From NCBI GenBank assembly GCA_937864235.1, contig CALMJI010000018.1, positions 8,939-72,938 on the forward strand: DNA of 64,000 bases, in the 5' to 3' direction. The translations under genes were made by a program, and so were the position numbers. Each line of letters begins with the position of its first letter. The stretch's first letter is position 1. The notes below the pieces were generated by a model. It did not search any database. It was given only the letters and a program-made list of their open reading frames with translations, and was not told the origin of the DNA. Source of the stretch: an uncultured bacterium (GTDB lineage: Bacteria > Patescibacteriota > Minisyncoccia > SW-4-49-11). Shown piece by piece: positions 30,285 through 63,204 of this stretch.

Positions 30285-31445
30285 TTACAACCCAAATCTT
30301 CCTCTTGCTGCGTTGAAGTTATGTTGTATTTCACTTAAAGACAATACTCTATTATAAATTTGTAATGAAGAAATATTCCCTCTATAGGCCTGGATATCTC
30401 CAGACTGCCTTACCCCTAAGTAGTTGTTATCTGTAGTGATTGCTGGGGTATTTAATCCATTAGTATTAAATACCAGAGGAGAGTTGTTCCAATACATATT
30501 AAAATTAGATATATTTGTACTTCCAGACCCCATATATGTTATCGTTAACATTCCCCATAGATTTGGGGTGGGATAAAATGAAGTTTTTGCTTTTACCCAA
30601 CCATTATTATTTGCAATATAAAGTCCTTCATATCCAGAATTTAGTTGATTTACATAAGCAATTCCAAGAGTAGATGTACCAGATGATCTTAATGTAATCA
30701 TTCTATGAAAATCAGCTTGAGTTCCCACTTTGGGTTTTGGATTAACACTCATCCATAAATTTATGGTAAATGGATTAGAAGTTGATATAAAATAAGAAGA
30801 TCCTAAATTAATAAAATCATCAACTCCATCAAAAACCAAACTACCTAGATTAGCACTATTATATCCAACCCCATTCACAAGTGTTACATTATTATTTCCA
30901 CTAAGATCAAACCAAGTTGTCCCTGTCCCTGGATAGCTTGCTGCATTCCCTGCATCTAGGTGTAAAACTAGTCCATTATTTATTACATATGGATTAATTG
31001 AAATTAATCTATTCTCTGATAAATCTGCAGATACTCCTACTTTATTATTATTAGGATTTATTACTACATTATATCCTGTATTTGCTCCTGTTGCTTGGGG
31101 GTCTTTTGGGATGCCTGCTATGTATGTTGGGACTAATTCTCTCAAATCTGCTCTATCAGTACAGTTTGTTGATCCTCCTACCTGCTCTACTCCTGTATTA
31201 CATATATATCTAGGCGTTGTACTTATACTATTTGGATATCTTCCATTATCTATTAGATATTGTTCTAAGGCTTTATATATTGTATTTACATCTGACCTTC
31301 TTTGTGCATTCCTTGCTTGGGCTATTTGCCTGTTTGGATTTATGGCTACTAATACTATTGCTGCTAATATTCCTATTGCTGCTATTACTAAGAGTATCTC
31401 TAATAATGTAAATCCTTTTCTTGTTCTTTTATGATTTTGTATCAT
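30285..31445 (-). CDS. Type IV pilin-like protein with class III signal/N-methylation site and a C-terminal LamG (concanavalin A-like lectin) domain
   Basis: N-terminal RKG-FTLLEILLVIAAIGILAAIV (G/F cleavage site, Glu at +5). C-terminal roughly 230 aa with LamG-type beta-sandwich motifs (LVFDGVDDFINLG; NISSLQIYNRVLS). Confidence 0.8.
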   Translation of the reverse strand: MIQNHKRTRKGFTLLEILLVIAAIGILAAIVLVAINPNRQIAQARNAQRRSDVNTIYKALEQYLIDNGRYPNSISTTPRYICNTGVEQVGGSTNCTDRADLRELVPTYIAGIPKDPQATGANTGYNVVINPNNNKVGVSADLSENRLISINPYVINNGLVLHLDAGNAASYPGTGTTWFDLSGNNNVTLVNGVGYNSANLGSLVFDGVDDFINLGSSYFISTSNPFTINLWMSVNPKPKVGTQADFHRMITLRSSGTSTLGIAYVNQLNSGYEGLYIANNNGWVKAKTSFYPTPNLWGMLTITYMGSGSTNISNFNMYWNNSPLVFNTNGLNTPAITTDNNYLGVRQSGDIQAYRGNISSLQIYNRVLSLSEIQHNFNAARGRFGL

Positions 31446-46286: not shown

Positions 46287-46475
46287 CCTTCGTAGCGGAG
46301 GCTTTTAGTCTATCCCATACCTTGTTTGGGATGGGGTTTATCCCTCCATTTTTTCGTAGGAGCATGACACCCCCCTCCTAAAGAGGATAAAAGCTCCAGT
46401 ACAAAAATACCTCGGGCGACATAAGGCCGCCCCTACAAACACAAAACACAATTGAGGGACTTAAAGCCCTACGAT
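46287..46475. repeat. Cluster of REP-like elements: two forward GTAG-hairpins and two inverted hairpin-CTAC units (BIME/REPIN-like)
   Basis: GTAG at 46292 and 46356. GGTTTATCCCTCC at 46335-46347 matches the RAYT-internal hairpin. Hairpin GGGCG...CGCCC followed by CTAC at 46433; AGGG...CCCT followed by CTAC at 46470. Local GC is about 50%. Confidence 0.65.
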
Positions 46476-46540: not shown

Positions 46541-46569
46541 TTGCTATTTTTGGTATTTTATGCTATAAT
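46541..46569 (+). promoter_or_regulatory. Sigma70-like promoter for the tandem GspE / tsaE / fem operon
   Basis: TTGCTA (46541-46546), 17-nt spacer, TATAAT (46564-46569). The ORF-track start at 46541 is a TTG inside this promoter. Confidence 0.5.
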
Positions 46570-46591: not shown

Positions 46592-49591
46592 ATGAGTTCA
46601 GTATTAAAACAAAAAAAATCTAATCGTCAAAGCTTTAGAGACAAATTGCATTCTGATAATGCAGTTGAGCTTAATTTAGCGGTAATTCACAAAAAAGAAG
46701 AAGAACTTAATACTCAAAGATTAGCTGACAATCTTGGTATGGCTTATCTGAATTTGCAATTTATTCCTATCAATCCCGATGCTTTGAAAATATTAACCAA
46801 AGAACAGGCTCAAAAGGCTAAAATGATTATTTTTCAAAGATCTGGACTACATCTCAAGATAGCTATACAGGATATATCTAATCCTGTTGCTAAGACTATT
46901 TTACAAAAATTATATCAAAATAAATATGAATTAGATTTATATTTGGTGTCAAAGTACAGTCTAGAAAAGGGATATAATGCTTACGCATTTTTACAAGATA
47001 GGAGTGAAGTTGTCAAAGATAAATTAGTAATTCCTTTTATGATGCTGGAGGATGTAAGGCAAGGAGTAGTAAATTTAGATGATTTTGCTAGTAAAATTAA
47101 CTCTGTTGACACTTCTGAATTAATTCAAATAATTTGTGCCGGAGCTATTACCTCTTTGGCTAGTGATATTCATATAGAGCCCAAAGGAGATATTACGCGT
47201 CTTAGATATCGTATAGACGGTGTTTTGCAGGATATTCTGAATTTTGATAATGCATTATATGAGTTGCTAATCTCAAGAATAAAAAATCTAGCTTCCCTTG
47301 TGTTGAATATTAAAAGCACCTCTCAGGATGGTAGATTTAGTATTATTATTCAAGAGGAAAATGGAAGGGTTAAAAAATCTATTGATGTAAGAGTTTCTAT
47401 ATTACCAAGTAAAACTGGGGAAATTATTGTGATGAGATTATTGAATGCTGAAATTCATAATCTAGATATTTATAGTTTTGGCATTCGAGAATCCTTTTTG
47501 AATACTATAGTTAGAAACTTGGATAAACCACAAGGTATGATTATGTTATCAGGGCCAACTGGATCTGGTAAAACAACTAGCCTTTATTCATTCTTAAATT
47601 ATGTGAATCGATCTGAGACCAATATTATTACTATTGAGGACCCAATTGAATATAGATTACCTAATATAAATCAAACTCAAGTGGATACTAAAAAAGGTTA
47701 TGATTTTGCAAATGGGCTAAAGGCTATTGTAAGGCAAGACCCTGACATAATTATGGTAGGTGAAATTAGAGATAATGAGACTGCGAATATAGCTGTAAAT
47801 GCCTCTATTACTGGACATTTGGTGTTTTCTACTATTCATACGAATGACTCTGTGGGTATTGTGACAAGACTAAAAGAATTTGGCTCTACTCCTCAACTTA
47901 TTATCTCAGCTATGAATTTATTTATTGCCCAGAGATTGGTAAGAAAATTATGTGAATGTAAAGAGGAATATATTCCTACTGAGTCAGAAGTTGACTTAAT
48001 CAAAAAGACTTTAGCTATTATTTCACCTAAATCTAATCTTACTCTCCCTCAGGAAATCAAAAAACTATATAAACCTAAGGGTTGTGTGAAATGTTATGGA
48101 ATTGGTTATAAAGGTAGAATTGCTTTATATGAATTGTTCGAGGCTAAGGATAATATTAGAGATTTAATTATTAATAATATTCCAGAATTTAAAATATTCC
48201 GTAAAGCGGTTGAAAATGGGATGGTGACTTTATTTCAAGATGGAGTTTTACATACAATAGACGGAGAAACTTCGCTTGAGGAAGTTTTATCTGTGGCAGG
48301 AGATATAGGGTATATAGACGAGATTTATGAGTCTACTCTAAGCTCGGCTTTATCTAGAGGAATTCATATCAAAAAATCAAGCAATACTCTGCCTGAAATT
48401 ACCCATCTCTCTGAATCTATGTCTATTGATGATCAGTTAACTGCTATTACCAATGCTGCTCTTGTAAAAAGAGCTACGGATATTCATCTTGAGCCTGATA
48501 TGGCTGATTTGATTATCAGATTTAGAATTGATGGAGTTTTGTATGAGGAAGCTCGTGTACCAAAATCTCTATACCCGCAAATTCTAACTCAAATTAAAAT
48601 TTTTACAGGACTACCTCTTGATATTGCTAATAAAATTCAAGAAGGAAGATTTACTATTTTTGCTGATAAAAACTTTGATGTGAGAGTCTCTATAATTCCA
48701 GGAGGCTATGGACAAACCATCGTACTTAGAATATTAAGGTCAGATATTGCCAAACTCAAATTGCAAGATCTCGGTATGGATGAATATAATATTAATCTCC
48801 TACAAGAGCAATTACAAGCTACTACCGGACTTATTTTGGTTACAGGACCTACTAGTGCTGGTAAATCTACTACTCTATATGCTACCCTTAATACTCTCAA
48901 TCAGCCTGGGGTAAAAATTATTACTATTGAAGATCCGATTGAATATAAATTATCTGGTATTTTGCAAACTAGCATCAATGAAGAGACTGGATATAGTTTT
49001 CCCAATGCTATTAGAGCTTTACTTAGACAGAATCCTAATATTGTCTTAATGGGAGAGATAAGAGATACCGAAACAGCTAAGGTAGCTATGCAAACTGCTG
49101 CAACGGGGCATCTTTTGTTATCTACCCTACACACTAATGATGCCGCCTCTGCCATTTTGAGATTATATGATTTAGGAGTTGGATTGTCTGAGATAGCTAC
49201 TTTTGTGAATGTAACTATAGCCCAGAGAATTATTAGGAAAATTGATCCAGAAACTGCTACTACTATCAACCTATCACAGGAGCAAAAAGAGATTATTAAA
49301 TCTAAATTGCCAGACAGATACCATAATTTAATTCCAGACACTATCCTAGAGGCTAATGCTAGTCCCGATCATCCAAATGGATATTATGGTATCACAGCCA
49401 TTTTTGAAGTTTTAGTATTGACTCCTAAAATTAAAGACGTTATTATCCAGCAAGCTTCAACGGCTAATATCAAAAAACTGGCTATTGAAGAGGGAATGAC
49501 AACTTTGGAAGTTTCTGGTATTCTAAAAGTATTAGACCATACTACTGATTTTGCCGAATTGGAAAGAGTATTGGGGATAAAAGTATTATAA
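46592..49591 (+). CDS. Tandem-fused double GspE/PilB-family secretion ATPase (two complete N2 plus ATPase modules in one 1009-aa polypeptide)
   Basis: Module 1 has Walker A GPTGSGKTT, Asp box IEDPIEY, Walker B MVGEIRD, His box GHLVFSTIHTN and a CxC...CxxC zinc motif. Module 2 has GPTSAGKST, IEDPIEY, LMGEIRD and GHLLLSTLHTN but no Cys tetrad. Each module is preceded by a GspE N2-like domain. Confidence 0.85.
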   Translation: MSSVLKQKKSNRQSFRDKLHSDNAVELNLAVIHKKEEELNTQRLADNLGMAYLNLQFIPINPDALKILTKEQAQKAKMIIFQRSGLHLKIAIQDISNPVAKTILQKLYQNKYELDLYLVSKYSLEKGYNAYAFLQDRSEVVKDKLVIPFMMLEDVRQGVVNLDDFASKINSVDTSELIQIICAGAITSLASDIHIEPKGDITRLRYRIDGVLQDILNFDNALYELLISRIKNLASLVLNIKSTSQDGRFSIIIQEENGRVKKSIDVRVSILPSKTGEIIVMRLLNAEIHNLDIYSFGIRESFLNTIVRNLDKPQGMIMLSGPTGSGKTTSLYSFLNYVNRSETNIITIEDPIEYRLPNINQTQVDTKKGYDFANGLKAIVRQDPDIIMVGEIRDNETANIAVNASITGHLVFSTIHTNDSVGIVTRLKEFGSTPQLIISAMNLFIAQRLVRKLCECKEEYIPTESEVDLIKKTLAIISPKSNLTLPQEIKKLYKPKGCVKCYGIGYKGRIALYELFEAKDNIRDLIINNIPEFKIFRKAVENGMVTLFQDGVLHTIDGETSLEEVLSVAGDIGYIDEIYESTLSSALSRGIHIKKSSNTLPEITHLSESMSIDDQLTAITNAALVKRATDIHLEPDMADLIIRFRIDGVLYEEARVPKSLYPQILTQIKIFTGLPLDIANKIQEGRFTIFADKNFDVRVSIIPGGYGQTIVLRILRSDIAKLKLQDLGMDEYNINLLQEQLQATTGLILVTGPTSAGKSTTLYATLNTLNQPGVKIITIEDPIEYKLSGILQTSINEETGYSFPNAIRALLRQNPNIVLMGEIRDTETAKVAMQTAATGHLLLSTLHTNDAASAILRLYDLGVGLSEIATFVNVTIAQRIIRKIDPETATTINLSQEQKEIIKSKLPDRYHNLIPDTILEANASPDHPNGYYGITAIFEVLVLTPKIKDVIIQQASTANIKKLAIEEGMTTLEVSGILKVLDHTTDFAELERVLGIKVL

Positions 49592-49595
49592 TTTT

Positions 49596-50033
49596 ATGGA
49601 GAAGATAATTTCAAAATCTAGTCTAGAGACCCAAGAAATAGCTAAAAATATAGCTCAAGAAATCATAGCAAACAAAAGAGCTAATGTTGTGCTATTAGAA
49701 GGAGAATTAGGTGGAGGGAAAACCACCTTTAGTCAAGGATTTTTGGCTAGTCTAGGAGTAACTCAAGCAGTGACCAGTCCTACCTTTGTGATTATGAAGT
49801 CTTATGCTATACCCTCATCAGAATATAAAGTATATCATCTAGACTTATATAGACTCAATCAAGAATGGGAGGTGCTAGACTTAGGTATTATGGATATAAT
49901 TTCTAACCCCAATAATATTGTATTAATCGAATGGGCTAGTAAAACCGCTAAAATATGGGAAAATCTACCTCATACCAAGATAAGCTTCGAGGTCATTAAT
50001 TCAAGTGAGAGAAATATTAATATTAACCCTTAA
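49596..50033 (+). CDS. tsaE: tRNA threonylcarbamoyladenosine biosynthesis protein TsaE
   Basis: LEGELGGGKTTF P-loop and SPTF motif; 145 aa. Confidence 0.85.
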   Translation: MEKIISKSSLETQEIAKNIAQEIIANKRANVVLLEGELGGGKTTFSQGFLASLGVTQAVTSPTFVIMKSYAIPSSEYKVYHLDLYRLNQEWEVLDLGIMDIISNPNNIVLIEWASKTAKIWENLPHTKISFEVINSSERNININP

Positions 50034-55160: not shown

Positions 55161-55700
55161 TTGCAAACTCAACCAGAGAGACTTATGGATCCTCTATCTA
55201 AAATTAATGGTTTAATTTTTGGTCATACAGGAGAGTTTCGGTTAGAAACAGAAATTAGAGAAAAAATTAGAGAAAAAATAAATATGGCTAGAAAAAGCCA
55301 GGTGTCACTATGGACACTAAAACACAATACGCACATAGTAGATACTTTAATAATACTTTATAAAATAGTGTCTCCTTGGTCCGACATGAGTAATGAGATT
55401 GCAGAACTAATGTCTGACATACAAAAGATAAATAACTTGGGTAGATACAATGATATTTATACAGCATTAGAAAATATGGTTAAAACTAAACCTATGAGAG
55501 AAGCATTTGGTATAAACAGAACAATACCTGGAGAAACCCCAGATATTTATACAATATTTATTAATGATAAGCCCTTGGTAGAATATAATAATAATATCGA
55601 CTCAAAAACGCAGGAAGAAATATCAAAGGTTATCAATAAAATCCATGGGGAATTTCTACCCCCTCTTAATGGTTTAGTAAATTGTAGAAAATATTACTGA
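55161..55700 (+). CDS. Hypothetical protein
   Basis: ORF with no recognisable motif; followed by a terminator. Confidence 0.45.
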   Translation: MQTQPERLMDPLSKINGLIFGHTGEFRLETEIREKIREKINMARKSQVSLWTLKHNTHIVDTLIILYKIVSPWSDMSNEIAELMSDIQKINNLGRYNDIYTALENMVKTKPMREAFGINRTIPGETPDIYTIFINDKPLVEYNNNIDSKTQEEISKVINKIHGEFLPPLNGLVNCRKYY

Positions 55701-55709
55701 CCCAATCAA

Positions 55710-55741
55710 AGCCCCACAAGTAACTAGCGGGGCTTTTTTCT
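55710..55741 (+). terminator. Rho-independent terminator
   Basis: AGCCCC...GGGGCT stem followed by TTTTTTCTTTTT. Confidence 0.55.
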
Positions 55742-55749
55742 TTTTCCTT

Positions 55750-55870
55750 CGTAGGGGCGACCTTGCAGTCGCCTGTATTTGATATTTTGTCTCCCTTTGG
55801 AGGGAGTCCCCGTAGGGGGAGGTGGTCCCTCCAATACTTTGTTTGGGAGGGGACGGAGGAGGACTATACC
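55750..55870. repeat. REP-like GTAG-hairpin elements plus the 18-mer GTCTCCCTTTGGAGGGAG
   Basis: CGTAGG-GGCGAC-cttgca-GTCGCC (55750-55774). 18-mer identical to 30253-30270 (55789-55806). CGTAGGG-GGAGG-tggtc-CCTCC (55811-55832). GGAGGAGG-rich tail. Confidence 0.65.
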
Positions 55871-55931
55871 CCATTTGACAAAAATAGAAAATTTTAATAC
55901 TATAAATAACACTCTCAATGAGGAAAAACTA

Positions 55932-56282
55932 ATGTCAATTCCCTGCAAATACTCTAAAAAGAATTGGGAGAATATTTTAACCCTACTACAAAGGGCAAGA
56001 GGTTCAAAAAGTCAATCTGTAGAGAGGTACTATGGTTTTAGAAAGAGAGAAGCCCAAAAAGACACGAATGATATAGGGCAAACTGGGAATTCTATCAGAA
56101 CAATCGATTTAGCAATCAGTCAAATACGTCATAGCATTGAACAAGAAAATGAATCTGATCATATAATGATATTATTAGACATCAACATGTATCACTTAAT
56201 CGAAAGGTTAAGACGCAGAAAATTAAAGCTCAAAAAAATAAGAAGACAATACAATAATTCAATCACCACCCCGCTAAATTAG
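55932..56282 (+). CDS. Hypothetical protein with a strongly basic C-terminus
   Basis: GAGGAAAA RBS 8 nt upstream of ATG 55932. C-terminal RLRRRKLKLKKIRRQ. The track ORF from 55779 runs through the repeat region and is rejected. Confidence 0.5.
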   Translation: MSIPCKYSKKNWENILTLLQRARGSKSQSVERYYGFRKREAQKDTNDIGQTGNSIRTIDLAISQIRHSIEQENESDHIMILLDINMYHLIERLRRRKLKLKKIRRQYNNSITTPLN

Positions 56283-56340: not shown

Positions 56341-56417
56341 GCCAATGTAGCTTAGTCTGGCAGAGCAATGCATTCGTAACGCATAGGTCGTGGGTTCGAT
56401 CCCCACCATTGGCTCCA
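56341..56417 (+). tRNA. tRNA-Thr (anticodon CGT), CCA encoded
   Basis: Cloverleaf folded by hand. Acceptor GCCAATG/CATTGGC. D stem GCTT/GAGC with a 9-nt loop. Anticodon loop TTCGTAA (CGT at 56375-56377). T stem GTGGG/CCCAC with TTCGATC loop. Discriminator T plus CCA. Confidence 0.85.
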
Positions 56418-58795: not shown

Positions 58796-60838
58796 ATGGG
58801 AGTTAAAGCATCTAAACTAATTCAAATCACTGTCAACAATAATGATAGGTTAACTTTATTATCCTATCTTCAGAAAAATGCCATAGGTCAAATTATAGAA
58901 AAAATAGAAACTACTCCTCTTGATAAAGATTCAATTGAATTACAGCAAGATTTATTAGAAAAACTTGATATTATTAATAAAACAATTGATATATATAAAA
59001 TTTATCAACCTACTAAAAAATCGATTTGGGATAACTTTATTGACAATAAAATCCCCATAACAGAAAATATTCTTCATCATTATGAAGACAATATGATCGA
59101 TATTATAGCAAAAGCAGTCATAATAAATGATATTGCTGAAAGAAAAGATGATTTAATAGATAGACAAGATGTATTGAAAGACATTATTTCCCGAGTAGAA
59201 CCTATTAAAGATATTGAGATAGACATATTTGGATCATACAAATTTTTATCTTTTTTACCATTTTTGGTTGATGAATCTCGTGCTCATATTGTTACAAAGC
59301 AATTAAAAGAAAGTATATCATCAATTGTACTAGAGTCTGTTAAAAAAATTGGGACTGATTATCTTTATGTATTAGCAGTACCAAATTCTGAAACAAAAAT
59401 AGCTCACGATATACTTGAGAGTAAAACTACTCTCATAAATTTCCCATCTCAAGTTTCTGGCTCTTTTTATGATATTTATCATAAAAGCTTAAAGGAATTG
59501 CAAGATAATAAAAAAACTCTAAACTCTTTAAATAAGAATCTTAAATCAGCTAATGTGAATTTAAAAGATTTATATATAGTTAGTGATATAATAACCTCTA
59601 ATCTGAATCTGATTTCCTATCTTCACATGTTTACTAACAAAATAGAGGGTAAAGCTACTTTAGACCTATGGGTTGATGGTGATAAGCTAGACCAGATACA
59701 GAAGGAGCTGACATCCGTTATAAAAGACTGTGGATTGAACACAGCTCATCAATCTAAAAAAGTTGCCCCTGTGATAGTAAAAAACTCAGTAATTATTAAA
59801 AACTTTGAAACTATTACAAAAACAATGGGATTACCCAAAGGGAATGCTATTGATCCTACCTCATACCTGCTTCTATCCTTCCCTATTATGTTTGGGATTG
59901 CACTATCTGACGCAGGATATGCTCTTCTTTTTCTAGCTGTTACTGGAGTTGCATTACTACATCCTAGATTGAAATCAAATATTAGGAATATGTTTGTAAT
60001 AATTTTTGTTTCATCAATATTTAGCTTTATTATTGGAGCTATTACAGGTAATTGGTTTGGTTTAGTTCCTGATAAAGTAGATATGGCGACGGCATTACCA
60101 CATGTATTGTGGTTGGAATCAATCGGTTTACTAGGTTTTTTACAAGCCATTCATATTGTTGATCCTCTAGAGCATGTTGTAGGATTTATGATATTAACCG
60201 CCTCAATTGGAGTTATTCATATATCATTTGGGCTTGTATTAGGATTTGTTCAATCACTAAAAAAACAAGATTTTTGGGAAGAAGGCATAGAGTCAGTAGC
60301 ATGGTTTTGTGTTCTTGTGTTTGGAATATTGCTTTTATTGGCAAATCAAGGAATTCTTGGTAAAGATTTAAATAACCTTACTCAAATTCTGAAAATAGTA
60401 TATGGAATTATAGTTTTAGCAAGTGTTTATATATTGGGTCGTAATATGAAATCATTCCCTGCTAAAATTGGAAAGGGTCTATATGAATTATTTTTTGGAG
60501 TTATAGCCTATGTGTCTGAAATTTTATCCTATACTCGTCTTGTGGCTTTGGGTCTTGCTGGAAGTATTATTGCAGAAGTTGTAGGAACATTAGCTGGTCT
60601 TGCTGGTGGAGGTTTGGCGGAAAAAGGTGGAGTTTATTTTATACTAGGATATATAATTATAGTTATAATATTCTTAATAGGAAATATATTTAATATAGTC
60701 CTCTCTCTCTTAGCTACATATATCAATGTTGGTAGACTTCATTTTGTAGAATTCTTCAGTAAGTTTTTTAAAACTGGAGGAGAGCCCTGGACTCCAGTTT
60801 CAAGAAGTCATCAATATAGTATAATAGAGAAATCTTGA
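58796..60838 (+). CDS. V/A-type ATPase subunit I (a-subunit)
   Basis: Soluble N-terminal half plus roughly 8-TM C-terminal half with the conserved Arg (SYTRLVALGLAGSII). Confidence 0.85.
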   Translation: MGVKASKLIQITVNNNDRLTLLSYLQKNAIGQIIEKIETTPLDKDSIELQQDLLEKLDIINKTIDIYKIYQPTKKSIWDNFIDNKIPITENILHHYEDNMIDIIAKAVIINDIAERKDDLIDRQDVLKDIISRVEPIKDIEIDIFGSYKFLSFLPFLVDESRAHIVTKQLKESISSIVLESVKKIGTDYLYVLAVPNSETKIAHDILESKTTLINFPSQVSGSFYDIYHKSLKELQDNKKTLNSLNKNLKSANVNLKDLYIVSDIITSNLNLISYLHMFTNKIEGKATLDLWVDGDKLDQIQKELTSVIKDCGLNTAHQSKKVAPVIVKNSVIIKNFETITKTMGLPKGNAIDPTSYLLLSFPIMFGIALSDAGYALLFLAVTGVALLHPRLKSNIRNMFVIIFVSSIFSFIIGAITGNWFGLVPDKVDMATALPHVLWLESIGLLGFLQAIHIVDPLEHVVGFMILTASIGVIHISFGLVLGFVQSLKKQDFWEEGIESVAWFCVLVFGILLLLANQGILGKDLNNLTQILKIVYGIIVLASVYILGRNMKSFPAKIGKGLYELFFGVIAYVSEILSYTRLVALGLAGSIIAEVVGTLAGLAGGGLAEKGGVYFILGYIIIVIIFLIGNIFNIVLSLLATYINVGRLHFVEFFSKFFKTGGEPWTPVSRSHQYSIIEKS

Positions 60839-60930
60839 TATCCTTTCTTCTATATGGCTAGTTATTAACTAGAAATATAGTGGAAAGGATACCAAAAGAG
60901 TATCCTCAATTATGAATTTAAGATAAATTT

Positions 60931-61410
60931 ATGGAAGTATTAGGAATTAGTCTAGCAGTATTAGGGGCATCTGTTGCAGCTGGTCTTGCTGGCGTTGGAT
61001 CAGCGATTGGAGTTTCAAAAGCTGGGCAATCTGGTTCAGGACTCATTGTAGAAGATGCGACACAATTTGGTAATGTATTGTTATTACTTGCTCTACCTGG
61101 ATCTCAAGCTATATATGGTTTGTTAGCTGCTCTACTCATTCTACAAAATATTGGGATTTTGTCAGGAGAGTTTTCTGAGATTAGCTGGCAAAAGGGACTT
61201 ATATTAGCTTTCTCATCTATCCCTGTAGGTTTAACTGCTTTAGCCTCTGGTAAGTATCAAGGGGATCTAATTGCTAGTGGAATACAAATTATATCAAAAG
61301 ATAAAAGTAGATTGGGTCAAGTAATTATTCTGGCTGCTTTAGTTGAAACATTTTCTGTATTCGGACTTTTGATATCTATTCTTATTATTAATGGAGTTCC
61401 TCTTACATAA
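60931..61410 (+). CDS. V/A-type ATPase proteolipid subunit K (c)
   Basis: Duplicated hairpin of four TM helices, Gly/Ala-rich, with the conserved Glu in the last helix (ALVETFSVFGL). Confidence 0.85.
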   Translation: MEVLGISLAVLGASVAAGLAGVGSAIGVSKAGQSGSGLIVEDATQFGNVLLLLALPGSQAIYGLLAALLILQNIGILSGEFSEISWQKGLILAFSSIPVGLTALASGKYQGDLIASGIQIISKDKSRLGQVIILAALVETFSVFGLLISILIINGVPLT

Positions 61411-61412
61411 CT

Positions 61413-61949
61413 ATGGATTTAAGTAAATATATTCAAGATAAAGTAGATATTGAGTTAAATAAGCTCAGAGAAAGTTTAGAGCTTGAATTTAATGATACTA
61501 AACAATATTGGGATAGAGAGTTAGCATCTGTTAAAAAAACACATAATGATGAGATTGATCAAGAAGTTAATATTAATATTAACTTCAAAAAATTCCAAAA
61601 TAGCAAAACTAGTAAATTCAATTCTGGCTATGCTATACAATCCCAATTAGAGCAAATTTATACTGAATCTTTACCAGAAATTCTAGCTTCTAACTTTGTA
61701 AAAACTTTAATTCAAGACACTCTTCAGGATATTCCACAGAACACAACTTTAAACATAACTGGACAATATAGCAAAAATTTAGAAACTATTATCAGTAGCT
61801 TTGGGTATAAATCTAATTTAGTTGAAAATAATGCTAGTTTAGGTAAAATCACTGCCTCATTAAATCATATTAGTCTAGAAATTACTGTTGAGGACATTTT
61901 AGATGCTGTAAAGAAAAAAACATTAGCTTACATAATCAAGGAAATATGA
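61413..61949 (+). CDS. V/A-type ATPase subunit E
   Basis: Position and size in the operon; helical N-terminal segment. Call is by synteny. Confidence 0.6.
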   Translation: MDLSKYIQDKVDIELNKLRESLELEFNDTKQYWDRELASVKKTHNDEIDQEVNININFKKFQNSKTSKFNSGYAIQSQLEQIYTESLPEILASNFVKTLIQDTLQDIPQNTTLNITGQYSKNLETIISSFGYKSNLVENNASLGKITASLNHISLEITVEDILDAVKKKTLAYIIKEI

Positions 61950-62887
61950 GTTTACAACTTCCTATAACTAGCGTTACTAGTAGGTATTTAGTTAGGTTAG
62001 AGCGCATACCATCATCTAATGAAACTAAAAGTTTGTTTAATATAGATAATATTGACTATTGTATAAGTTTAATTAAAGAATCTTTCGGACTATTGGATGT
62101 GAATCTGGATAATGTTATATTAAAGCTTAATGACTATTATAATCAACAGATAAGTGAGGTTTTGTCTTTGTTGCCAGCAAATTCTGCTTCCTTTATATAT
62201 CTAAACCTATCACAAGATTTTGAGAAGCTCAAAAACATAGCTATTAATAAAACTATTTATGGAGAACCTCTGGGAGAAAAAGGGTTTGAACAAATGATAA
62301 ACGAAACTCCTGGTAAGTTATATTATTCAGATAAGTTTAAATCAAAATTATTAGCTAAAGAGGAAAAATTAATTCACTCTCACGATAGCTTTAGCCTCAT
62401 TTCTTATTTAGAAGAAATATTTTTAACCCTATTATTTGAAAATTTAAAAGATGGGAATAAAATTATGAAAGACTTCATTTTAGCTAAAATAGATAGCTAT
62501 ACCCTACTCAATGTTTTAGCTAGAACTCAAAAAGGTCAATCTAAAGAGCATATTTTAAGACACTTATTACCAATTCAAGGAAGTTTTGCTATCAATGCGG
62601 TAAAAGGATTTAGTTTTGGAGACGTGTTAGGAGATATTGGTCAATATTTAAATTTAGCTCCTGTAGATATAAATACCATCAATATTGAAAACACCCTTAT
62701 TAAAAATGAAATCAAGACCATAAATAGAGCTCAATTTAGCGGTATGTCTGGAGATAGAATTATTCAATATACCGAGAGATTACAATATGCTATTTCAAAC
62801 TTTAAATTACTGATTTTACAGCATTCTAAGAAATTTGATTCCAAGCAAGCTAAACTAAGATTTATAGATTATTCCAATATATGTTAG
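61946..62887 (+). CDS. V/A-type ATPase subunit C (V0 d-type)
   Basis: Roughly 310 aa helical protein between E and F. Call is by synteny and size. Confidence 0.6.
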   Translation: MSLQLPITSVTSRYLVRLERIPSSNETKSLFNIDNIDYCISLIKESFGLLDVNLDNVILKLNDYYNQQISEVLSLLPANSASFIYLNLSQDFEKLKNIAINKTIYGEPLGEKGFEQMINETPGKLYYSDKFKSKLLAKEEKLIHSHDSFSLISYLEEIFLTLLFENLKDGNKIMKDFILAKIDSYTLLNVLARTQKGQSKEHILRHLLPIQGSFAINAVKGFSFGDVLGDIGQYLNLAPVDINTINIENTLIKNEIKTINRAQFSGMSGDRIIQYTERLQYAISNFKLLILQHSKKFDSKQAKLRFIDYSNIC

Positions 62888-63204
62888 ACTATAAAAAACC
62901 AGTTATAATTGCCGATGCTGATATAACTTTATTATTCAAGTTATTTGGGTTTGAGACTTTGAATAGCAATGAATTAGAAATGGATCAAATTATCGTTAAT
63001 ATTCAAAAGGATGCCGAAATGTATGCTATTATATTTATAGCCTCTAATATAATATTAACTCCTAAACAAAGAAAACTCCTTAACTCACTCAATATACCTA
63101 TTTCGCAGATACCTATTAGCTCAGATAGCAATTCCGTTGAGGAGTTAAAGCATCTCACCGAAAAAGCAGTAGGTATGAGCCTAGACAAATTATTCACCTC
63201 TTGA
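62881..63204 (+). CDS. V/A-type ATPase subunit F
   Basis: 107 aa ([20 protein letters not shown]) immediately before the A subunit. Confidence 0.7.

Follow-up and report, generated by a model that had tools for sequence, protein, structure and literature searches.

A PilB/GspE-class motor ATPase with two catalytic modules in one polypeptide is conserved in bacteria of the Candidate Phyla Radiation

One open reading frame encodes two complete ATPase modules

The stretch of DNA analyzed here (the window) comprises 64,000 nucleotides of contig CALMJI010000018.1 (positions 8,939 to 72,938) in the GenBank assembly GCA_937864235.1 of an uncultured Minisyncoccia bacterium, and at 46592-49591 of its forward strand lies a gene for a PilB/GspE-class motor ATPase in which the catalytic core is present twice. 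The list of open reading frames (ORFs) has a single ORF of 999 residues plus stop at this position, without internal stop or frameshift. The mechanically called start is the TTG at 46541. However, a consensus scan alone places a promoter-like site (TTGCTA-17-TGnTATAAT) at 46541-46569 of the forward strand, just 5′ of the ATG at 46592; the TTG belongs to its first hexamer, and we therefore consider it a spurious start. Translation from ATG 46592 gives 999 residues, which is the modal length of the homologues (matches of 996-1024 residues).

The protein consists of an N1 domain, a first N2 domain and C-terminal ATPase domain (CTD), a linker of ~45 residues, and a second N2-CTD pair; we refer to the two pairs as modules 1 and 2, or a and b. 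The Pfam T2SSE model (PF00437) matches it in two separate stretches with a total of 692 bits, and the NCBIfam GspE and PilB models each also match in two stretches, in agreement with the preliminary description of this DNA as a single-polypeptide tandem of two complete PilB/GspE-class modules. The N1 domain, of the MshEN/GSPII-like type, spans 46709-46996 (residues ~40-135). Its Pfam MshEN match is weak (23.9 bits against a cut-off of 23.1, residues 48-125), but solved PilB structures align from residues ~35-41 onward and the AlphaFold2 (AF2) model is confident in this region. A Pfam scan of the 999-residue protein found no second N1 domain, leaving one N1 for two cores.

In module 1, the N2 domain occupies 47117-47491 (residues 176-300) and the CTD 47492-48301 (residues 301-570), with Walker A (321 GPTGSGKT, 47552-47575), Asp box (345 IITIEDPIE), Walker B (386 IIMVGEIRD, 47747-47773), and His box (414 TIHTN) followed by a tetracysteine loop (47951-48094; Cys454, Cys456, Cys498, and Cys501) whose first pair is C-x-C rather than C-x-x-C. 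The linker (48302-48433, residues 571-614) begins with a conserved helix, placed at residues 573-587 by the AF2 secondary structure, and continues as a variable coil; Tyr579 is invariant and Leu587 and Arg589 are nearly so. Module 2 has its N2 domain at 48434-48796 (residues 615-735) and its CTD at 48797-49588 (residues 736-999), with Walker A (752 GPTSAGKS, 48845-48868), Asp box (776 IITIEDPIE), Walker B (817 IVLMGEIRD, 49040-49066), and His box (845 TLHTN). Direct motif search thus found all four motifs intact in both modules, as the preliminary description had stated, and no cysteines in the module 2 loop equivalent to the cysteine loop of module 1. The two modules are 36% identical over 395 residues, and each aligns end to end with the N2 domain (N2D) and CTD of solved PilB and GspE structures.

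The two-module gene occurs in independent assemblies

A protein search covering 5.8 billion protein clusters returned >100 clusters of 988-1055 residues, with 40-92% identity to the query and 95-100% coverage of its length, and a second protein search added ~100 more clusters of two-module homologues. Local domain calling identified two full modules in 222 proteins. Taken together, at least 219 two-module homologues are known, ranging from 40 to 93% in identity. Among species representatives of GTDB, the two-module gene is present in nine Paceibacteria/Parcubacteria metagenome-assembled genomes (MAGs), at 80-93% identity, and in two Moranbacteria MAGs, at 42%. When 12,306 matches at E ≤ 1e-30 were clustered at 50%, two modules were present in only ~15 of the top 150 representatives. 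Outside the Candidate Phyla Radiation (CPR), only a sporadic tandem case was found, P0134.

P0134 (1047 residues, L023 10001-13144) differs in architecture, with a T2SSF-like (PilC-like) domain followed by two T2SSE modules. The first of these modules has Walker A Lys replaced by Thr and a degenerate Asp box (EDPVQ), while the second is intact. It is a singleton in a family of ~615-residue T2SSF-T2SSE proteins, in which the PilC-type domain replaces N1; its relatives include P0363, P0367, P0378, P0391, and others, one of them annotated as Brocadiia.

The spread of the gene among assemblies bears on whether the ORF could be a sequencing or assembly artefact, in which a stop or frameshift overlooked near 48.2-48.4 kb had merged two adjacent pilB genes. 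We give this explanation essentially no credence, because the same continuous ~1000-residue gene is found in the 11 species-representative MAGs, which come from different projects and assemblers, and in >200 protein clusters. All 10 of 10 close orthologues are in frame with no stop. Module 2 has neither an N1 domain of its own nor a start context, and the linker is conserved and under purifying selection, as described below. The only apparent stand-alone module 2 gene, a match of 416 residues (P0126), is a fragment at a contig edge, followed by the same tsaE-pfkB-FemAB genes. The preliminary description had proposed checking for a read-through and looking for the same fusion in related genomes; the artefact is thereby ruled out, and the fusion is found in Paceibacteria, Parcubacteria, and Moranbacteria assemblies.

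Both modules are of the PilB/GspE class

Scanned separately, the two halves score 437 and 363 bits with the GspE model and 432 and 345 bits with the PilB model, against 234 and 216 bits with ComGA and 168 bits each with PilT. The whole protein passes the cut-off of the PilB model TIGR02538 (675.65) with 764.8 bits, but only because its two matching stretches add up. Neither half reaches the cut-off of the GspE model TIGR02533 (630.25) or that of the PilT/PilU model TIGR01420 (319.1). The AIRNLIRE motif is present in neither module, and in alignments the module 2 C-terminal subdomain matches PilB, not PilT. These comparisons assign both modules to the PilB/GspE class, not the PilT class.

The AF2 model, computed from an alignment of 99 sequences, has a mean predicted local distance difference test score (pLDDT) of 85. 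When it was used as a Foldseek query, each module was matched to PilB and PilF chains as an N2D-CTD fold, with target-normalized template modeling (TM) scores of 0.88-0.94 and root-mean-square deviations of 2.1-3.3 Å; for the module 1 CTD the TM score to PilB chains is 0.9. The best matches in the PDB are single PilB, PilF, and GspE chains (TM score up to 0.94), and no solved structure with two cores was among the matches.

Catalytic residues are retained in both modules

In both modules, all 119 aligned two-module proteins retain Gly, Lys, and Ser/Thr of Walker A, the glutamates of the Asp box, GE.R of Walker B, and the histidine of the His box. Strict regular expressions recover all four motifs in module 1 of 211 and module 2 of 215 out of 219 proteins, so that the module 2 motifs, whose loss on realignment had been raised as a possible objection, survive across the family. 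Four N2 arginines are invariant at corresponding positions of both modules (Arg205/Arg643, Arg207/Arg645, Arg267/Arg698, and Arg282/Arg713), and both modules also conserve the acidic residues that follow Walker B in the pore loop. Other N2 residues are invariant in one module only: Arg203, Arg229, and Gln245 in module 1, and Arg686 in module 2. Among close relatives, the ratio of nonsynonymous to synonymous substitution (dN/dS, Nei-Gojobori method) is 0.045-0.08 in module 1 and 0.03-0.09 in module 2, and the linker gives values of 0.07-0.2. In several pairs dS is saturated; pairs at dS ~0.5 agree. By these measures purifying selection is strong on each module and on the linker, and both modules retain every class of residue needed for ATP binding and hydrolysis.

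The four module 1 cysteines are invariant and form a candidate zinc-binding loop. Four cysteines are also present in the module 2 loop of 182 of the 219 two-module proteins, and the 36 proteins without them constitute the query's own sub-clade. The statement in the preliminary description that only module 1 keeps the zinc motif is therefore accurate for this protein and does not hold as a trait of the family; the asymmetry is real but derived, and specific to the sub-clade.

These patterns bear on the possibility that one module is a non-catalytic pseudo-ATPase with a regulatory or structural role, like the α subunit of F1 α3β3, or that the protein fuses an extension motor of PilB type to a retraction motor of PilT type. 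Module 2 of the query lacks the zinc motif, as PilT does, and evolves faster than module 1, and the unrelated tandem protein P0134 provides an example of a degenerate first module. However, the catalytic motifs of both modules are invariant across 119-219 homologues, dN/dS is equally low in the two, and most family members have zinc motifs in both. Fusion of PilB to PilT is further contradicted by the module 2 scores, which for GspE and PilB are about twice that for PilT, and by the missing AIRNLIRE. The Walker A decay in P0134 indicates that decay is possible in principle, so its absence in the CPR family is informative. We consider the pseudo-ATPase explanation largely refuted, and it and the PilB-PilT variant very improbable.

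One segment of the gene is more diverged in the comparison with the closest relative, L001. Nucleotide identity to L001 is 92-99% over most of the gene and falls to 73-87% at 47642-48541 (codons ~351-650), which covers the end of the module 1 CTD, the linker, and the start of the module 2 N2 domain; dS there is ~1.0-1.5, compared with 0.06-0.26 elsewhere. This drop suggests a recombination tract or a chimeric bin.

The duplication arose at a conserved pilB locus

Single-module PilB proteins are encoded at the same locus in other CPR genomes: P0153 (565 residues) in the order DHH/PilB/ruvB, and P0140 (554 residues) in the order polA(-) tsaE(-)/PilB/ruvB/bPH_2. No remnant of a second module was found after P0153 (orthologue in L020). 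Because single-module PilB proteins hold the same locus and no remnant follows P0153, the two-module gene is, from these sequence comparisons, derived, at a PilB locus that is conserved in CPR bacteria.

A large clade of two-module proteins, here called the main clade, shares a junction motif, G-D..YI..[LI]Y....S.L.RG, which corresponds to the predicted helix at residues 573-587. The distal linker half shows homology to the residues that precede the module 1 N2 domain (HHalign probability 90%). Throughout the main clade, module 1 of the query is nearer to module 1 of the other proteins than to their module 2. For module 2 of the query the corresponding relation holds in most comparisons, but module 2 evolves faster. 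The neighbor-joining tree of modules had no bootstrap support and was used only alongside the identity tables.

Two proteins at the same locus, P0128 and P0131, have modules that are nearest to each other (56% and 75% identical, respectively) and junctions unlike that of the main clade. This combination suggests that they are independent, later duplications, which we favor without regarding it as proven. Gene conversion within P0131 and within P0128 was considered as another source of the self-similarity, given that both lie at the common locus, and is less likely, because their junctions do not resemble the main-clade junction. The duplication looks recurrent.

A longer form was also found. 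P0028 (1460 residues, L013 10001-14383) comprises three full modules, with the family junction motif occurring twice, and its modules 2 and 3 are 58% identical.

The gene lies outside any pil operon

Gene order in the window and in close relatives is pgk(-), pilBB tsaE pfkB FemAB VanW cysS, where pilBB denotes the two-module gene and the five downstream genes are separated by 4-bp gaps or overlap. tsaE (49596-50033, forward strand, Pfam TsaE) begins 4 bp 3′ of the ATPase gene. Pfam matches thus bear out the operon listed in the preliminary description, and also the pilin gene it had placed 15 kb away. As a family trait the operon did not hold up: tsaE is the only neighbor kept throughout, lying either immediately 3′ of the ATPase gene in the same orientation or on its 5′ side in divergent orientation, and the neighbors are housekeeping genes. 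Linkage of tsaE to the ATPase gene is seen in L001-L011, L013-L016, L018, L019, and L022, and tsaE also adjoins single-module orthologues, while other neighbors change. We know of no functional link between an ATPase of t6A synthesis and a pilus motor. Because the neighbors are housekeeping genes and only the tsaE linkage is conserved, the operon tells little about function.

More distant members follow the order tsaE(-) [DHH] pilBB ruvB, small ORF, bPH_2, and a protein with Lamin-tail (LTD) and PKD domains. This arrangement, with tsaE(-) [DHH] pilBB ruvB, is found in the Moranbacteria loci L010/L011, in L013, and in L014 (a 683-kb contig), and its tsaE(-) pilBB portion on the short contig L016. 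The Lamin-tail/PKD proteins (~680-750 residues; L010 15454-17490, L013 5864-8131, and L014 15362-17398) and the bPH_2 protein are conserved a few genes 3′ of the two-module PilB in this Moranbacteria-type arrangement, and could be surface or filament-associated partners.

Only one other part of a type IV pilus was found in the window. A prepilin with the motif KG|FTLLE and a C-terminal ConA-like lectin domain is encoded on the reverse strand at 30285-31445 (Pfam N_methyl and Laminin_G_3), 15 kb from the ATPase gene, and its prepilin motif is the only one in the six frames of the window. It is a candidate substrate of the two-module motor. In L021 (763-3348), the gene for a single-module PilB (P0137, 553 residues) is followed after 25 bp by a gene for an N_methyl and Laminin_G_3 pilin of the same architecture. 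No PilC, PilM, PilN, PilO, PilD, or PilT was found among the scanned ORFs of the window, consistent with the earlier remark that pilC, pilM/N/O, and pilD are not present in it, and window scans found no Gsp genes (GspF, GspL, or secretin) near the ATPase gene. The unannotated ORFs of the window, which include RluD-like, CorA-like, and SecY proteins, yielded no type IV pilus genes either. The two-module gene is thus located, as far as gene order indicates, at a conserved tsaE/ruvB-linked locus outside any pil operon.

Two modules per chain may form an alternating ring

Motors of the PilB/GspE class are rings of six identical subunits, for which the firing order, with C2, C3, or C6 symmetry, is debated. 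In the PilB hexamer, the packing unit is the N2D of one chain together with the CTD of its neighbor (PMC5424180). The hexamer is C2-symmetric, with two opposite sites turning over together and PilC in the pore (PMC5424180). On balance we think it probable that the two-module protein of this ultra-small CPR bacterium (Paceibacteria/Parcubacteria) is a vertically inherited motor of the PilB type, the class that drives pilus extension, in which the N2-CTD core was duplicated in tandem and the modules assemble into an a-b-a-b-a-b ring. Three chains would build a six-module ring with modules a and b alternating, and the ~45-residue linker would be long enough to reach the neighboring position in the ring. 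Such a ring would carry only three N1 domains and, in the query's sub-clade, only three zinc sites. It would act as the PilB hexamer does, engaging a PilC-type platform encoded elsewhere and polymerizing type IV pilins, for example the one with a lectin domain encoded 15 kb away. If the C2 rotary scheme operates in an a-b-a-b-a-b ring, opposite positions would always be one a and one b, and therefore neither module could decay without stalling every step. We propose that both modules are kept intact because C2 firing would need both types in each step. The observed module counts of one, two, and three are all divisors of six, which gives the ring weak support because a single protein supplies the three-module case.

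The preliminary description went further and took the covalent dimer to imply an obligate trimer-of-dimers motor. The covalent link by itself has no such implication, since stacked rings occur in other tandem P-loop ATPases; a trimer-of-dimers ring is plausible. In the stacked alternative, six chains would form a double ring, as in KaiC and type II AAA+ proteins, with six a-modules (and six N1 domains) over six b-modules. Natural tandem P-loop ATPases most often stack in this way, and AF2 gives no confident side-by-side docking of the modules. The faster evolution of module 2 and the loss of its zinc motif in the sub-clade would also fit a second ring with a different job. However, a distal ring would lack reach to PilC and the membrane, yet module 2 keeps its pore-loop acids, catalytic residues, and N2 arginines. 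The complementary module-specific residues (Arg203, Arg229, and Gln245 against Arg686) fit heterotypic a:b interfaces better than stacked homotypic rings. We know of no stacked rings among PilT/GspE-class proteins, and the PDB relatives found here are all single rings. Stacked rings are disfavored by the module 2 pore loops and the complementary N2 changes, and we regard them as unlikely.

Several points weigh against an alternating PilB-type ring that arose once in the main clade. AF2 places the modules of the monomer with low global confidence (predicted TM score, pTM, 0.51), and a sub-construct of CTDa, linker, and N2b reaches a pTM of 0.68. Both halves score under the NCBIfam equivalog cut-offs for PilB and GspE. 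The identity of module 2 to module 2 across the clade (43%) is barely above that of module 1 to module 2 (43%), so that the case for a single origin depends chiefly on module 1 and the common junction. The three-module form P0028 is a singleton, from one contig of one sample. In ~10 lineages, no pilC, pilM/N/O, pilD, or pilT was found within 10 kb on either side of the gene, and the connection to a pilus machine is made through family membership and one pilin gene. The evidence covers individual loci, and a canonical PilB could be encoded elsewhere in these genomes.

The motor probably serves pilus extension

We infer a pilus-extension function from family membership, the prepilin in the window, and the adjacency of P0137 to a pilin of the same architecture. 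The gene could instead encode a motor for another job of type IV filaments, such as DNA uptake or protein secretion, with a canonical operon-encoded PilB serving the pilus. It is never in a pil operon, its neighbors in most lineages are genes of DNA metabolism (ruvB, DHH phosphoesterase, polA, ruvA/ruvC, and holA), and each half scores slightly higher with the GspE than with the PilB model. CPR genomes with co-localized pilB/pilT/pilC/pilM/N/O operons and widespread ComEC have been described (PMC6744442). However, these neighbors are housekeeping genes that may have stayed linked through inheritance of gene order, with no bearing on function. In this window cell-wall and tRNA genes take their place, and a close single-module relative is encoded directly 5′ of a lectin-domain pilin. 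A dedicated role of this kind seems rather improbable to us.

For a motor that extends pili, a bolder reading can be formulated, which we regard as tentative and somewhat doubtful: that in Parcubacteria-type CPR bacteria the pilus extension motor, possibly the sole one, is a natural covalent heterodimer forming an a-b-a-b-a-b ring with three N1 anchors, which arose more than once at the same locus and is drifting toward functional asymmetry through loss of the module 2 zinc site and complementary N2 changes.

Comparison with known motors

The protein resembles PilB (Geobacter metallireducens 5TSG/5TSH/6OLJ, Myxococcus xanthus 3JC8, and Geobacter sulfurreducens 5ZFR) in its N1 domain and N2D-CTD core, in the four motifs (with an atypical Walker B), in the tetracysteine loop of module 1, and in the acidic pore-loop residues, with 39-42% identity and a TM score of ~0.9 per module. 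Unlike PilB, each chain carries a pair of N2D-CTD cores with a conserved ~45-residue linker between them, one N1 for two cores, and a module 2 without cysteines; its gene lies outside a pil operon, and its halves fall below the TIGR02538 cut-off. GspE/EpsE (Vibrio cholerae 1P9R/4KSR and Vibrio vulnificus 4PHT) gives the best NCBIfam score and the top PDB sequence match for module 1, and has the same motif set and a loop like the candidate zinc loop of module 1. In contrast, the core here is in tandem and no GspL or GspF gene is nearby. To our knowledge, CPR bacteria have no outer membrane and no type II secretion system. PilQ has been reported to be absent in CPR bacteria (PMC6744442).

Internal repetition is also seen in Thermus thermophilus PilF (6F8L, 913 residues), another long motor of the PilB family. 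PilF repeats its N-terminal GSPII/N1-type domains and has a single ATPase core, whereas the two-module protein has one N1 and a repeated core. Under the trimer model, the ring would resemble F1/V1 α3β3 and A3B3, with six sites supplied by two kinds of module that alternate and go back to an ancient duplication. Every other site of the F1/V1 ring does no catalysis, and the two kinds of subunit come from separate genes. The two-module protein is of another ATPase class, and its sites, which both look catalytic, are covalently linked. Under the same model, it would be a natural tethered counterpart of engineered single-chain ClpX pseudohexamers. KaiC and type II AAA+ proteins, whose tandem domains form stacked rings, share with it two P-loop modules per chain, but differ in fold and linker logic; they are the basis of the structural rival and not relatives.

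Public annotations name the two-module proteins "PilB" or "GspE/PulE family protein". No published description of a tandem or fused PilB or GspE was found in a full-text literature search, the coverage of which left out most subscription journals. The two-module protein is thus a conserved, lineage-wide, and apparently undescribed change of architecture in a well-understood motor. If the ring model is correct, a tethered two-module motor provides an asymmetric ring that allows separate mutation of alternate sites, so far achieved only by engineering and in other ATPase classes, and it would offer a natural test of two-fold against three-fold firing in PilB-class motors. Type IV pili are thought to be central to host attachment and DNA uptake by CPR episymbionts. 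The label "PilB/GspE" hides an architecture that would halve the number of N1 anchoring domains per ring, and counts of pilB genes and models of the CPR pilus machine should allow for the two-module form.

Other features of the window

The 360-bp spacer between pgk and the two-module gene contains three GC-rich hairpins at 46287-46432 (for example GGGCGGCC...GTCGCCC), in a genome of 32% GC. The spacer has no Rfam match in its GC-rich part, and in L001 only its promoter-proximal 115 nucleotides are conserved. A V/A-type ATPase cluster at 58796-63204 includes subunit I and the proteolipid c subunit and is followed by several ORFs without Pfam matches. At 55161-56282, two TTG-start ORFs (179 and 167 residues) without Pfam matches are interspersed with terminator-like hairpins; close relatives conserve them at 31-56% or not at all, and they are possibly not genes. 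A tRNA gene at 56341-56414 (63 bits) overlaps the mechanically called GTG start (56390) of the ORF for the CCA-adding enzyme, and the enzyme must therefore start further downstream.

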